Source: Candidatus Undinarchaeota archaeon | GTDB lineage: Archaea; Undinarchaeota; Undinarchaeia; Undinarchaeales; UBA543 | DNA: 28,347 nt | NCBI GenBank assembly: GCA_964636545.1 | Contig: CAZWSR010000009.1 | Location: 1-28,347 of the forward strand | Direction: 5' to 3' | In this document: positions 4,964 to 8,764 of the stretch, one piece after another | How positions within the stretch are numbered: position 1 is the first letter of the stretch | How the letters are laid out: each line of letters opens with the position of its first letter | Translations under genes and position numbers: made by a program | Notes under the pieces: model-generated | Database searches by the model: none | What the model saw: only the letters and a program-made list of their open reading frames with translations | What the model was told of the DNA's origin: nothing

Positions 4964-7452
4964 CACAACTCCATAGTCATTTCAACAGATAACTCACAAT
5001 TTACTTTCTCACCTTCGCCTTTTCCAATCACAAGTTTCTCTGCTCTTGAAGCGCCTTGCAAGTCCAATTTAAACATTGTTATGGCTTTTTTCAATTCTTC
5101 TTTCCTTGCATCAATGTATAATGTTTTTACTTCTTTTCCAAGTGAAATTGCTTTCTCTTGTTTGAATTGTCGCACTGAAGCAAGCAATTTCTTTAAAATT
5201 TCACCAGCAGTTTCAATTTTCACATCACTTTTATCCGCTTTTGGCCATTTGCAAACATGAATGCTCTTTGCTTTTTCAAATTCTTTGAAATACATTTGAT
5301 AAATTTCTTCAGTAACATATGGCATTATTGGTGCAAATAATTTGAGAACATTTGATGCAACTGTGTAAAGTGTGTATTGAGCAGCTTCTTTCTCTCCTTT
5401 TGCATATTTTTCAGGTGAATAAATTCTATCTTTTACAATTTCTAGGTAATAATCGCAGAATTCATGCCAGAAAAGTTTCTCGCATTCAAGTTTTGCTTTG
5501 GAATATTCATATTTTTCAAAACTTTCAGTTGAAAACTTGATAACGGTGTTCATTCGCGACAAAATCCACTTATCAACTGCTCGCAGTTTCGGCTGTTGGC
5601 TTTTAGCTGTTGGCTTTTTGCCTGACTGCTGATTGCTGAGGGCTGATGCCTGTTTCGGTTTGTAACCTTCCAATTGCATTATAACAAATTTACATGCATT
5701 GAACATCTTGATTGCAAATTTTTGACCAGTTGCAAGATCTTTTTCTTGGAAAGGCAAATCATCACCAAGTGAACTGCCAGCTGCCCAGAACCGCAATGCA
5801 TCAGCACTGTAATTTTCAATCATTGCATGTGGGTCAACAACATTTCCAAATGATTTTGACATTTTCTTTCCATGGGGATCAAGTGCCCAACCAGAAATCA
5901 TTACATCTTTCCATGGGTTTACTTTATCATGCATCTGCGCTTTTACAACAGTGTTGAAAAGCCAAAAAGTGATTATGTCGTGTGCCTGTGGTCGTAAATC
6001 CATTGGATAAATCTTGTCAAATTGCTCAGGGAACATTTCTGCAGCAAGTTTTGGAGTAAGTGAAGAAGTTGCCCAGGTGTCAAGCACATCTTTTTCTGGT
6101 TCAAATTCACTAGATCCGCAAGTACAGTCTTTTTTTGGTTTATCAATTAATGGATCAATTGGCAAATCTTCTATAGCTGGTAAAGTTACTTTTCCGCAAT
6201 TTTTACAATACCAGCAAGGAATTGGAACTCCGTAGAATCGTTGTCGTGAAATACACCAATCCCATTGCAAACCTTCTACCCAATTTTGATAACGGTTTAC
6301 CATGTGATTTGGATACCAGTTTAGTGATTCTCCTGCTTTACGCAGATCATCTTTTAGATCAAGATATTTGATAAACCACTGTTTGGAATTAATAATTTCC
6401 ATTGGAGTTCCGCAGCGTTCATGTACATTAACTTCATGCTTGATTGGTGTTTGTTTTACCAGAAGTTTTGCAGCTTTCAAATCAGCAAGAATTGCTTTTC
6501 GTGCATCTAGGATACTCATTCCCTGATATTTTCCTGCTTTTTCAGTCATTTTGCCATCAGGAGTAATGCTCATAACAAGTGGAAGATTGTGTGCATGGTA
6601 CCATTCAATATCGGTTTGGTCACCAAAAGTACAACACATAACAATGCCTGTTCCTTTTTTCATATCAACACGGTCATCTTTCTTAATATCGACTCTAATA
6701 TTGAATAACGGAACTTTTGCTGTTTTTCCAATTAATTCTTTGTATCTTTTATCTCGTGGATGCGCGAAAATCGCAACACAGCTTGGCAATAATTCAGGCC
6801 TAGTTGTTGCAATTACGAGGTCTTTTCCATTATCAAGCTTGAAAATAATATCATTGAAAGTGCTGTCAAGTTCTTTGTCAATTAATTCAACTTGTGCAAT
6901 AGCCATATGACATTCTGGGCACCACATTGTTGGTGCTTCTTTCTGGTATTCGCGTCCTTGGTTGTATAAATCAATAAACGATTTTTGTGAAATTTTCTGA
7001 GAGTTGTTGTTTATTGTGGTATAAAAAATATTATAATCAGCAGATACGCCGATTTTTTTCCAGTCAGAAATGTATTTTGGTCGTAGTTCATTGTCAAGTG
7101 TGTCTAAACAGAATTTTCTGAATTCTTCCCTACTCATGTTTGTGTGCCTGACATTCTTGGTTTTTTCAATTAATCTCTCAGTTGCAAGACCATTATCGTC
7201 AGTTCCAAAAGGATAGAACATGTTGAACCCTTGCATTCGTTTGTATCGTGCAATAAAGTCCATTTGTGAGTATGAAAACGCATGACCTATGTGCATTCTT
7301 CCAGAAACAGTTGGCGGTGGAGTGTCTATTGAATAAATGGGATTCTCACTTGTTGGATCAAATGCATAAATTTTTTCAGTGTCCCACCACTTAGTCCATT
7401 TTGGTTCTGATTCTTTTGGATTGTATTTTTTTGGAAGTTCTTTTTTTGTCAT
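4963..7452 (-). CDS. valS: Valine--tRNA ligase (archaeal type)
   Basis: DTPPPTVSG, HIGH, DWCISRQR and KMSKS motifs; 829 aa. Confidence 0.97.
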   Translation of the reverse strand: MTKKELPKKYNPKESEPKWTKWWDTEKIYAFDPTSENPIYSIDTPPPTVSGRMHIGHAFSYSQMDFIARYKRMQGFNMFYPFGTDDNGLATERLIEKTKNVRHTNMSREEFRKFCLDTLDNELRPKYISDWKKIGVSADYNIFYTTINNNSQKISQKSFIDLYNQGREYQKEAPTMWCPECHMAIAQVELIDKELDSTFNDIIFKLDNGKDLVIATTRPELLPSCVAIFAHPRDKRYKELIGKTAKVPLFNIRVDIKKDDRVDMKKGTGIVMCCTFGDQTDIEWYHAHNLPLVMSITPDGKMTEKAGKYQGMSILDARKAILADLKAAKLLVKQTPIKHEVNVHERCGTPMEIINSKQWFIKYLDLKDDLRKAGESLNWYPNHMVNRYQNWVEGLQWDWCISRQRFYGVPIPCWYCKNCGKVTLPAIEDLPIDPLIDKPKKDCTCGSSEFEPEKDVLDTWATSSLTPKLAAEMFPEQFDKIYPMDLRPQAHDIITFWLFNTVVKAQMHDKVNPWKDVMISGWALDPHGKKMSKSFGNVVDPHAMIENYSADALRFWAAGSSLGDDLPFQEKDLATGQKFAIKMFNACKFVIMQLEGYKPKQASALSNQQSGKKPTAKSQQPKLRAVDKWILSRMNTVIKFSTESFEKYEYSKAKLECEKLFWHEFCDYYLEIVKDRIYSPEKYAKGEKEAAQYTLYTVASNVLKLFAPIMPYVTEEIYQMYFKEFEKAKSIHVCKWPKADKSDVKIETAGEILKKLLASVRQFKQEKAISLGKEVKTLYIDARKEELKKAITMFKLDLQGASRAEKLVIGKGEGEKVNCELSVEMTMEL
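5586..5658. repeat. In-frame heptamer-array insertion in valS flanked by 7-bp direct repeat
   Basis: Coding strand: ccgaaac aggcatc agccctc agcaatc agcagtc agg caaaa agccaac agctaaa agccaac ag ccgaaac. Confidence 0.7.
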
Positions 7453-7459
7453 AGCAGTA

Positions 7460-7554
7460 TATTTTCACAGAAAAAAACTGTGAAGAAAATAAGCTAGTTC
7501 CCCTACACAGGGGTCATATAACGACAACGATATTTGAGGTCATTTTTACTAGCT
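7460..7554 (-). promoter_or_regulatory. Putative leader-peptide attenuator of valS (alternative stem-loops and U7 tract)
   Basis: Hairpin CCCCU-GUGU-AGGGG (7513-7500); hairpin UUCACAG-U7-CUGUGAA (7484-7464); competing stem between them; AGCUAGU/ACUAGCU helix (7554-7548 with 7498-7492). Confidence 0.65.
7514..7543 (-). CDS. Val-rich leader peptide MTSNIVVVI upstream of valS
   Basis: atg acc tca aat atc gtt gtc gtt ata tga: three tandem Val codons; the stop lies 61 nt upstream of the valS ATG. Confidence 0.7.
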   Translation of the reverse strand: MTSNIVVVI

Positions 7555-7575
7555 GTATACCATTTAGGTAAATTA

Positions 7576-7589
7576 TTTATAAGCTTTCG
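7576..7589. promoter_or_regulatory. Likely bidirectional TATA box (valS leader / MFS gene) with BRE-like cgaaag on minus strand
   Basis: tttataag at 7576-7583; about 20-28 nt from the MFS ATG and 33-40 nt from the leader ATG. Confidence 0.55.
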
Positions 7590-7603
7590 CATAACCTTGC
7601 GCA

Positions 7604-8764
7604 ATGACTCTTATAGACCACAAACATTTTCATCATTTTTTTGCAAACAAAAAGATTAATGAATTATACGGAGCCATGGCAATTTTTCGATTTGGAGTTT
7701 CCTTAATAGCACTCTATGTTCCGATTTTCATGTATCAGCGCGGGTTTTCAATTTCTCAAATATTGATGTTTTTTGTGATTGCAGCAACATATTACACTTT
7801 ATTTTCAATACCAAGCTCTAAATTTACATCACGCTTTGGAGTAAAACACACTATGCTGTTAAGTCTGCCAATTTTAGTTGCTTATTATCTTGGTTTGAAT
7901 TATCTTCATCCTGGAAGTATGCTTTATTACATACTGCCTGGTGTTGCGTCAGCTCATTCTGTTTTGTTTAATATTGCGTATCACCTGAATTTTATAGAAC
8001 ATGCGGAGCGTGACAAAACTGCACGGCAGATGACTGTTCTTAGCATGATTTCTAATATTGTTCAGTTCGCTAGTCCATTCCTTGGTGGTATTATAATAAT
8101 GAATTATGGGTTTGGCGCGAACTTTGCTCTGGGTTCTATCATAATTGTTCTGTCAATGCTCCCTCTTTTGCTTACCAAGGATGTACATGAGCCAATGAGC
8201 TTTTCTGTAAAAGATATTTGGCACTACATAATTTCTAAAAAGCATTTGGGGATGAATCTTTCTTTTCTTGGATATGCTGTTGAGTCCATAATCAGTTTCT
8301 TGCTTTGGCCAGTGTTTCTGATTATTATGCTGAAAACAGTTGCGATGGTCGGTGGCGTTGTATCCTTAACTGCGTTTTTTACAATAACAACAATTTATTT
8401 TATTGCAAAACTTGCAGACAAGTGGGATAAGAAGAAGTTAATAAGAATCGGAACAATATTGCACTTTTTCGGATGGCTTGGTAGATTATTTGTGTACTCA
8501 CCATTAACTATATTTTCTGTTGACACTTACAAAAACATTTCACTGAACACTGTTCAGATCCCTTTGGGTGCTTATTTTTATGAAGTATCACACAAGAAGA
8601 ATTATTTTGAGTTGATTGTTGCTAGAGAAATTATATTTAATGTATCAAGAATCGTAGTTCTGCCATTGTTGGTTCTTTTGTTAAAGTTCAGTGGGCTTGG
8701 TTTCAAAACAGCTTTTGTAGTTGCTGCACTGTTCTCGTTATTGTATATGTGTATAAAAGAATGA
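7604..8764 (+). CDS. MFS transporter
   Basis: 386 aa, about 12 hydrophobic segments, motif-A-like SKFTSRFGVK and AKLADKWDKKK. Confidence 0.85.
   Translation: MTLIDHKHFHHFFANKKINELYGAMAIFRFGVSLIALYVPIFMYQRGFSISQILMFFVIAATYYTLFSIPSSKFTSRFGVKHTMLLSLPILVAYYLGLNYLHPGSMLYYILPGVASAHSVLFNIAYHLNFIEHAERDKTARQMTVLSMISNIVQFASPFLGGIIIMNYGFGANFALGSIIIVLSMLPLLLTKDVHEPMSFSVKDIWHYIISKKHLGMNLSFLGYAVESIISFLLWPVFLIIMLKTVAMVGGVVSLTAFFTITTIYFIAKLADKWDKKKLIRIGTILHFFGWLGRLFVYSPLTIFSVDTYKNISLNTVQIPLGAYFYEVSHKKNYFELIVAREIIFNVSRIVVLPLLVLLLKFSGLGFKTAFVVAALFSLLYMCIKE

Follow-up and report, generated by a model that had tools for sequence, protein, structure and literature searches.

A valine-rich leader open reading frame upstream of valS in an Undinarchaeota genome, a candidate archaeal variant of ribosome-mediated attenuation

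The valS leader and its orthologs

The window, i.e., the whole 28,347-nucleotide stretch of DNA analyzed here (contig CAZWSR010000009.1, referred to as C9, of the Candidatus Undinarchaeota archaeon assembly GCA_964636545.1), carries the gene valS on its minus strand, and the element under study is the segment at 7453-7589 directly upstream of it. valS (7452-4963, 829 amino acids) matches the valine--tRNA ligase family NF009687 with 1054.8 bits (cut-off 738). The genome amounts to 840,427 bp in 39 contigs with approximately 34% G+C and is 82.8% complete. A first-pass annotation, made from the sequence letters alone, had described in this segment a B recognition element (BRE) with a TATA box, a valine-rich upstream open reading frame (uORF), two hairpins (A and C), a stem B competing with both, and a helix enclosing the uORF, and had read them as a valine-sensing attenuator of valS. 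All of these features are present at the bases given for them.

On the minus strand, to which all coordinates of the leader refer, the BRE/TATA sequence cgaaagcttataaa occupies 7589-7576, and the promoter of the leader, recognized by sequence and spacing as a BRE-like A-rich stretch plus a TATA box (cgaaagCTTATAAATAA), spans 7573 to 7589. Downstream of it, the uORF (ATG ACC TCA AAT ATC GTT GTC GTT ATA TGA, 7543-7514) encodes MTSNIVVVI, with the three Val codons GUU GUC GUU in tandem (7528-7520), and ends 61 nt before the valS ATG at 7452. Its stop codon abuts hairpin A (CCCCU-GUGU-AGGGG, 7513-7500, −7.8 kcal/mol). Both the uORF and hairpin A are surrounded by the helix P0, whose arms AGCUAGU (7554-7548) and ACUAGCU (7498-7492) pair in the minimum free energy (MFE) structure. 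P0 is abutted by a first U-rich tract (UAUUUUCUU, 7491-7483), a candidate pause or termination site. Hairpin C follows (UUCACAG-U7-CUGUGAA, 7484-7464, seven pairs, −7.9 kcal/mol) and ends 11 nt before the valS AUG; the second U-tract, U7 (7477-7471), lies within its loop and not 3′ of it, which differs from the form of a bacterial terminator. The alternative stem B pairs 7510-7499 with 7489-7478 at 11 of 12 positions (−8.1 kcal/mol). Since contigs from four other public DNA runs give an identical sequence (compared over 7380-7660), the leader is no assembly artifact.

Upstream of 649 long open reading frames (ORFs) of this genome, TATA-like hexamers are most frequent between −30 and −28 relative to the ATG (0.119, 0.102 and 0.094), and only a minor peak resembling a Shine-Dalgarno (SD) sequence is seen at −15 to −8. 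The position of the TATA peak indicates that most genes of the genome are leaderless. For valS, a canonical TATA box at −30 was looked for and not found, and the gene is also without an SD sequence; lacking its own −30 TATA, valS must be transcribed through the leader. Between the candidate promoter and valS lies the uORF as a short ORF on the same strand. TATA-like hexamers start at −39/−38 from its AUG, and from this spacing alone the promoter was assigned to it; the transcription start site (TSS) would then fall at about 7551-7554, at the 5′ arm of P0, leaving a 5′ untranslated region (UTR) of about 8-11 nt before the uORF.

Orthologous leaders were collected from 17 Undinarchaeota genomes, 13 of them from the order of the window genome (G000); G001 and G002 belong to its genus and G004 to another family. 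The three genus members all preserve the motif AAA(A/G)(C)CTTATAA at the same distance from the uORF, in G001 and G002 despite an upstream neighbor different from that of the window. The valS uORFs of these two genomes, MITNTVVNV and MKTNVMVVV, consist of nine codons plus UGA as in the window, while the N-terminal part of their ValRS is 77-82% identical to that of the window. In G004 the uORF reads MSNSSVVVV, with a TATA at approximately −28. A Val-rich uORF of nine codons plus UGA thus precedes valS in 4 of the 17 genomes, from two families, each with three or four Val residues. The Val codons themselves vary while valine is kept (GUU GUC GUU; GUA GUA GUA; GUA GUU GUC GUA). A lack of Val enrichment in orthologous leaders had been named beforehand as evidence against the attenuator; enrichment was found in the same genus and in a second family. 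Three metagenome loci with 62-69% ValRS identity add the valS uORFs MINVLETVVVVV, MYSLWKTLSVVVV and MYSIWKTLSVVVAN. In the remaining 13 genomes, valS is preceded by a short canonical promoter or a tRNA-like gene and by no such ORF.

The structural surroundings of the uORF recur as well. A U-rich tract follows the enclosing helix in G001 (UAUUUUCUU), G002 (UUGCUUUUU) and G004 (AUAUUCUUUU), and a GC-rich hairpin is predicted 0-4 nt past the stop codon in all four leaders, with differing sequences such as ACCCU/AGGGU, CCCC/GGGG and CGGG/CCCG. In G004, the start region AUGAGC pairs with GCUCAU beyond the CGGG/CCCG hairpin, and AUAUUCUUUU follows.

Downstream, a 252-aa ORF without a Pfam or NCBIfam match (4966-4208, minus strand) overlaps the valS stop, and the gene for aRF1 (4215-3130, minus strand) lies 3′ of it. 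The valS-aRF1 synteny is found in G000 and in all five other Undinarchaeota checked, with or without a leader. We read 7453-7589 as the 5′ leader of the valS mRNA, probably of a valS-aRF1 operon. We also considered sensing of aRF1 through UGA, as all four Undinarchaeota valS uORFs stop at UGA and aRF1 lies downstream of valS, and dropped the idea as non-specific because the synteny also occurs in G005 and G006, both without a leader.

Two observations concern the upstream side of valS. The A/T-rich TATA element (7573-7582) is bidirectional and also lies at −30 of a divergent gene for a major facilitator superfamily (MFS) transporter (MFS_1; ATG at 7604, 7604-8764, plus strand). In family f2 (loci L012, L013, L017), an intron-bearing tRNA-like gene lies directly before valS; its ARAGORN -i label Ser(UGA) is doubtful, ARAGORN without introns found no tRNA beside valS in this family, and a GC-rich hairpin follows the tRNA-like gene in two of the three loci.

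Cognate codons upstream of other synthetase genes

The first-pass annotation had suggested scanning the other aminoacyl-tRNA synthetase (aaRS) genes of the genome for uORFs rich in the cognate codon, and the scan brought a second case at ileS. An unbiased search of G000 found on contig C13 the sequence MNTDTSIIIIIR, followed by a stop codon, 86 nt ahead of an ORF of 978 aa that encodes an isoleucine--tRNA ligase (TIGR00392, 927.8 bits, cut-off 621.4). The leader (C13 ~10623-10499, minus strand; L031/L197:2398-2533:-) consists of the uORF with a stem around it, a U4 tract and a hairpin, P2 (GUGCUCC-UUUUCAAAAAUUUCC-GGGGCAC), the only match of which in G000 is P2 itself. TATA hexamers stand at −31/−29 of this uORF, the leaderless spacing of the genome. 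Sixteen aaRS genes were identified with NCBIfam (Ile, Val, Leu, Met, Cys, Glu, Tyr, Trp, Ser, Pro, Thr, Gly, Phe-alpha, Asp, Asn and His; Arg, Ala, Lys and PheRS-beta were not searched), and in this 82.8% complete genome a cognate uORF was found at valS and ileS and at none of the other 14.

Ile-rich uORFs precede ileS in 10 of the 17 Undinarchaeota genomes, in four families and with four to six Ile each, and are absent in the other seven. The variants are MNTDT[SQ]IIIIIR (three genomes), MNTDSEIIIIR, MSTIIETIIIRN, MSTISGIISIIIRE, MSAISGTISIIRE, M[AK][RS]TASIIIVIGIVA (two genomes) and MVYTAGIIIAIGIAA. A separate scan of genome contigs with 78 usable loci returned six with Ile-rich uORFs, five of which were the same Undinarchaeota genomes; the sixth, MMRRAIIRAILHAGLSSR, comes from a Woesearchaeota record. 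In the ten leaders, AUAAUACGA is kept, and the P2 loop UUUUCAAAAAUUU is kept across the four families.

These uORFs favor one Ile codon: the ten of them contain 50, of which 40 are AUA, vs. 24% AUA in long ORFs of G000. Adjoining the 3′ end of ileS, and overlapping it if the ARAGORN coordinates are taken, is an intron-bearing tRNA (C13:7464-7576, minus strand; L031:365-477); ARAGORN -i labels it Ile(UAU), and it scores 49.8 bits with the Rfam tRNA model. Taken together, the AUA-rich leader and the adjoining tRNA raise the option that the leader may specifically monitor the minor AUA-reading tRNA, and suggest that ileS and this tRNA form a module.

To what extent such runs are expected can be read from the 13,437 ATG-initiated short ORFs (sORFs, 5-30 codons) that the 840-kb genome contains. 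Runs of at least three Val occur in 39 of them and a run of five Ile in one, namely the one before ileS, which corresponds to about 0.0035 Val-run sORFs and about 0.0001 five-Ile runs per 150-nt strand segment. When the 41 intergenic sORFs preceded by a TATA at −40 to −27 are compared, no other of at least nine codons is as strongly biased toward a single residue as the valS and ileS uORFs. That these ORFs and hairpins arose by chance in AT-rich intergenic DNA, which is indeed rich in short ORFs and U-tracts and where Val runs do occur, is very improbable in view of these expectations, of uORFs conserved across families, of relatives which are not near-identical strains (see the ValRS identities above), and of the leader fold described below.

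A cross-comparison between synthetases served as a control. We counted Undinarchaeota loci with at least three of one residue in a five-codon window. Before valS (17 loci), such clusters were Val in four, Ile in one and Leu in none; before ileS (17 loci), they were Ile in ten, Leu in one and Val in none. The nine leuS loci, no leuS having been recovered in the other eight genomes, had no Val, Ile or Leu cluster, so that Leu-rich uORFs precede leuS in 0/9 cases. The matrix of cognate vs. non-cognate residues is clean.

Some tRNA genes lie next to synthetase genes in G000. An intron-bearing tRNA-Trp(CCA) (C5:26761-26893) is located 47 nt upstream of leuS (26940-29612), whose product is a LeuRS of the bacterial type by score (TIGR00396, 1003.6 bits vs. 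337 bits for leuS_arch). A tRNA-His(GUG) (C1:88485-88559, minus strand) is located about 42 nt upstream of hisS, with a long inverted repeat on its flanks (AGCUGAUAGCU / AGCUAUCAGCU); because of the common strand, the proximity and the repeat, tRNA-His and hisS may be co-transcribed.

Counterparts were also found in Halobacteria. The entry point was a set of GC-rich brine contigs among the metagenome matches, which carry uORFs ending V[FR]VG.. at the stop codon before valS. Of 301 sampled genomes of that phylum, 32 had a close ValRS homolog (genome sizes 2.5-4.4 Mb), and 30 valS loci were examined (L223-L252). uORFs of this set end with V[FR]VGA[PS], and a strict motif, GUNGGSG(N5-9)UAGCCCC, with a GGGGC/GCCCC hairpin over the stop codon, was found at 10 of the 30 loci; a relaxed motif added a few more. 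A survey of pheS (L253-L282) and trpS (L283-L312) covered 41 genomes of the same class. Upstream of pheS, uORFs end with GFGFFF (e.g., MAPEPHSRCLARQPATRPGFGFFFAR) and are F-rich in 22 of 30 loci. The second, short-type trpS is preceded by uORFs with WRW motifs (e.g., MQSAPTRWRWRTSGADSLAFAA) in 11 of 13 loci, while W-rich uORFs were found at none of the 17 long-type trpS loci. Clusters were here defined as at least three F in eight codons, at least two W in six or at least three V in six. By this count, the 30 valS loci have V in eight, W in two and F in none; the 30 pheS loci F in 22, W in one and V in none; the 13 short-type trpS loci W in 11, V in two and F in none; the 17 long-type loci none of the three. 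In pheS leaders, codons near the 5′ end (CCCGAACCCC) pair with GGGGUUCGG just before a UUC/UUU run. By sequence, this would be the same pairing of the 5′ end beside a U-rich stretch as in the Undinarchaeota leaders.

Published transcript data exist for two of these synthetase genes. Differential RNA sequencing (dRNA-seq) of Haloferax volcanii (Babski et al., 2016; PMC4983044) lists a 26-aa uORF for pheS (HVO_2948) and a 23-aa uORF for trpS (HVO_A0127), both in long 5′ UTRs and without a second TSS marked in the available part of that article. The uORFs are listed there without sequences, and the same text contains no comment on their codons and the string “attenuat” 0 times.

Folding of the leaders, a proposed mechanism and its alternatives

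The 107-nt valS leader has an MFE structure composed of P0, A and C (−27 kcal/mol; z = −3.41), which none of 200 dinucleotide shuffles matched. In an alignment of the three genus sequences (mean column identity 78%), 92.7% of the cells of the complete structure are paired, vs. 33-58% when slid. P0 (six pairs) is invariant in all three; hairpin C (seven pairs) has six invariant pairs and one change from U-A to U-G; hairpin A shifts its register. Stem B is paired in 76.5% of cells vs. 50-62% in slid controls, with no compensatory change. Since column-wise covariation has no power in such a set, leaders were folded one by one. The 5′ part of the uORF was paired with the 33 nt from the stop codon onward, and for 15 of 17 leaders the resulting duplex has a lower energy than the mean of its shuffles (p = 0.002 to 0.8, in 12 of 17 leaders 0.002-0.09; the p values are not independent because the leaders come from relatives). 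Segment z-scores range from −1.6 to −4.75 in ileS leaders and from +1.35 to −2.65 in valS leaders. At the gathering threshold, Rfam recognized two tRNAs only in the whole window, and a search with E-values up to 0.5 on L001 and L031 returned no family on the leaders, including T-box.

The ileS leaders fold in a similar fashion. For RNA truncated at the U-tract, as it would be when the polymerase arrives there, the MFE structure of 9 of the 10 leaders is one long hairpin: the opening codons of the uORF pair with the nucleotides just ahead of U4-6, and an inner stem surrounds the Ile codons. In the exception, L206, the stem ends 4 nt short of the tract. The full-length RNA refolds such that the same 3′ segment forms P2 (GUGCYCC/GGRGCAC), and pairing of the 5′ codons and P2 are mutually exclusive in 9 of 10 leaders. 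The pairing arms vary by family (CACAG/CUGUG, GAGCACA/UGUGCUC, GGCACG/CGUGCC, GCACCGC/GCGGUGC, GGUUUACAC/GUGUAAACC). Because the enclosing stem slides between families, RNAalifold applied to the ten leaders found P2 only, with no double changes, and each leader was therefore folded singly. A common anatomy emerges from these predictions, namely a promoter-proximal uORF inside a helix which abuts a U-rich tract, and it appears to recur with different sequences.

We conclude that a leader ORF sensing its cognate tRNA probably acts in cis on valS, to which we assign a probability of roughly 0.8. As to how it acts, the leader transcript would begin a few bases before the uORF, and a ribosome would load on the nascent, nearly leaderless uORF during transcription, as archaea couple transcription and translation. 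How fast this first ribosome passes the Val codons would then signal how much Val-tRNA(Val) is available. With plentiful Val-tRNA, the ribosome would clear the uORF and the 5′-terminal AGCUAGU would pair with ACUAGCU beyond the stop codon. The hairpin of P0 and A would then abut UAUUUUCUU, with the second tract U7 behind it, and the RNA polymerase would pause and terminate; archaeal RNA polymerase is known to pause and terminate at oligo-U (oligo-T) tracts. A ribosome stalled on the Val codons, inside the hairpin, would instead hold P0 open, such that the polymerase could read into valS and probably aRF1. For termination at the U-tract as the controlled step, we see somewhat less than an even chance.

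Several findings weigh against this proposal, in particular against its termination step. The valS helices are near-invariant in the three genus sequences and display no covariation. U7 is lost in the third genus member, G002 (UUUUGAUUG), and in the three metagenome-type valS leaders the segment z-scores are weak (−0.93, +0.74 and +1.35). In families f1, f3 and f4, a TATA belonging to ileS itself, at about −30 from the gene, lies 3′ of the leader, and thus read-through may not be the sole route to its expression. To our knowledge, hairpins are not required for archaeal termination, and a hairpin-dependent decision is therefore an assumption. The stop codon precedes the U-tract by only about 25-35 nt, and this tight spacing means that the ribosome must depart during the polymerase pause. 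The proposal gives no account of how valS, without an SD sequence, would be translated from a leader of about 100 nt, and the direction of the response, with a stall turning expression on, is borrowed from bacterial logic.

The data also lend no support to the specific switch proposed in the first-pass annotation, in which A and C were to be opposed by stem B, with U7 behind B as a terminator tract. Stem B at −8.1 kcal/mol cannot match A plus C at −15.7 kcal/mol, U7 is not kept in G002, P0 and hairpin C hardly vary, hairpin A shifts its register, and none of them covaries. Refolding with a ribosome placed on the Val codons does not bring about the switch either, as the downstream RNA, folded alone, still forms hairpin C. 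A version of this folding in which the ribosome footprint was only masked was discarded because P0 could form around the ribosome. What finds support in the earlier proposal is its core, a Val-sensing leader ORF, which is backed by the conservation of the Val-rich uORF, by the ileS case, by the clean matrix and by the absence of a TATA proper to valS.

The same sensor could also have a translational output of the ermC/cat type. The leader would be made in full every time; a stall would open P0 and A, the segment so released would pair with the 5′ arm of hairpin C (stem B), and the ribosome-binding region of valS would be exposed. Such a model yields a response in the required direction, from stall to expression, without any demand on the timing of termination; stems B and C are mutually exclusive, and in the MFE structures of G001 and G002 an extended hairpin C indeed covers the valS SD (GGGAGG and GGAG..GGGG, respectively). 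In the window, however, there is no SD to sequester, hairpin C stops short of the AUG, and the energy and pairing values of stem B, together with the persistence of hairpin C under a stalled ribosome, speak against B here as they do above. In the ileS leaders, furthermore, the second hairpin contains no SD, and 15-100 nt separate it from the ileS AUG (in family f2, the ATG follows P2 by 15 nt). We regard a translational output as unlikely, yet as the main rival.

Alternatively, the uORF might simply aid translation by recruiting ribosomes which reinitiate at valS about 61 nt further on, in which case the Val and Ile richness would tie aaRS synthesis positively to elongation capacity or be a by-product of constraints on RNA structure. 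The leaderless character of the genome and a valS with neither SD nor TATA of its own would fit, and uORFs near the main ORF are common in archaeal ribosome profiling (Ribo-seq), according to the accessible parts of two studies (PMC10117724, PMC11456600). Yet reinitiation gives no reason for the enriched residue to match the synthetase each time, as it does in five aaRS systems from two phyla with clean cross-controls, or for the third bases of the Val codons to vary while the amino acid is kept. Families without a uORF, moreover, simply have a canonical leaderless promoter. We regard this explanation as improbable.

That the peptides themselves function as hydrophobic micropeptides, or that the ORF merely happens to lie within a conserved RNA structure or promoter element, appears highly improbable to us. 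This view draws on the nucleotide conservation of AUAAUACGA and of the P2 loop in ileS leaders and on the TATA which valS shares with the divergent gene. However, the peptides diverge freely outside the cognate run (MTSNI, MITNT, MKTNV, MSNSS; MNTDTS, MSTISG, MARTAS), no Rfam family matches the RNA, and five cognate matches would have to be coincidental.

Returning to the cognate-tRNA-sensing leader ORF, we find the Val-sensing interpretation strongly supported as far as sequence comparison can carry it, and the system is probably a real and new archaeal variant of ribosome-mediated attenuation. It also seems fairly likely, with less assurance than for valS itself, that the leaders represent a so far unrecognized class of archaeal attenuators for aaRS in at least two distant phyla, with leaderless or near-leaderless uORFs of cognate codons and 5′-end pairing beside oligo-U. 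Its members would then be valS and ileS in Undinarchaeota and pheS, the second trpS and valS in Halobacteria.

Implications and comparison with known systems

If this holds true, archaea sense tRNA charging via the ribosome, a DPANN archaeon with a reduced genome (about 0.84 Mb assembled, at about 83% completeness) included, and regulatory uORFs are possible on leaderless mRNAs. Translation could gate oligo-U termination by the archaeal, eukaryote-like polymerase, and the system would represent an archaeal solution joining leaderless initiation, ribosome stalling and oligo-U termination. For the annotation of archaeal genomes, a simple rule would follow, namely to look upstream of aaRS genes for a uORF close to the promoter that contains several cognate residues in a row. 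The counterparts in Halobacteria make the idea testable in Haloferax volcanii, for which genetics, auxotrophs, dRNA-seq and Ribo-seq are at hand.

Leader-peptide attenuation is a textbook mechanism of bacteria. Among the closest parallels is the pheM leader of pheST in Escherichia coli, a leader-peptide transcription attenuator of an aminoacyl-tRNA synthetase. As in pheM, the leaders described here have a short ORF rich in codons for the synthetase’s own amino acid and a refoldable RNA after it, and presumably a low level of charged tRNA leads to more synthetase. In contrast to this bacterial system, whose leader ORF has an SD and whose GC-rich terminator hairpin is followed by a U-run, the uORF here is promoter-proximal or leaderless and wholly enclosed by a helix, the U-tracts lie 3′ of this helix or within the loop of the hairpin after it, and the archaeal polymerase obeys different termination rules. 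The ilvL and ivbL leaders, which serve the ilvGMEDA and ilvBN operons and contain mixed Val, Ile and Leu codons, likewise use runs of branched-chain codons as the sensed element. They control biosynthetic operons, whereas each leader here contains the cognate residue of only one synthetase, with none for leuS (0/9).

In ermC and cat leaders, a drug together with the nascent peptide is the trigger and exposure of an SD the output. The likeness lies in a ribosome which stalls in a short leader ORF and refolds downstream hairpins; the difference lies in the absence of an SD from the valS of the window. T-box riboswitches fill the same role in that the expression of bacterial synthetases follows tRNA charging, but they bind uncharged tRNA directly and involve no uORF, and our Rfam searches gave no T-box match.

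In archaea, no leader-peptide attenuator of a synthetase gene was found in the searchable full-text literature, with supplementary tables and most subscription journals lying outside the search; the first-pass annotation knew of no established case either. The nearest statements come from archaeal Ribo-seq, where, in the accessible text, sORFs in 5′ UTRs are called “reminiscent” of leader peptides (PMC10117724) or mentioned as possible uORFs (PMC11456600). Leaderless leader ORFs are reported from bacteria. Deinococcus deserti has leaderless leader peptides before tRNA synthetase genes, predicted from TSS maps (PMC4007540), and polycysteine leaderless uORFs are described for mycobacteria. As far as these accounts go, this type shares with our leaders cognate codons and synthetase genes among the targets, and its ORF at or near the 5′ end of the transcript resembles the position predicted for ours. 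Judged by spacing alone, the ileS uORF with its TATA at −31/−29 would be canonically leaderless, while the valS uORF would retain a 5′ UTR of about 8-11 nt. The pheS and trpS genes of Haloferax, finally, are archaeal synthetase genes with a uORF-bearing leader as well, and the lengths of these uORFs are similar to those at the Halobacteria loci studied here; the window extends the comparison to another phylum and to other amino acids.

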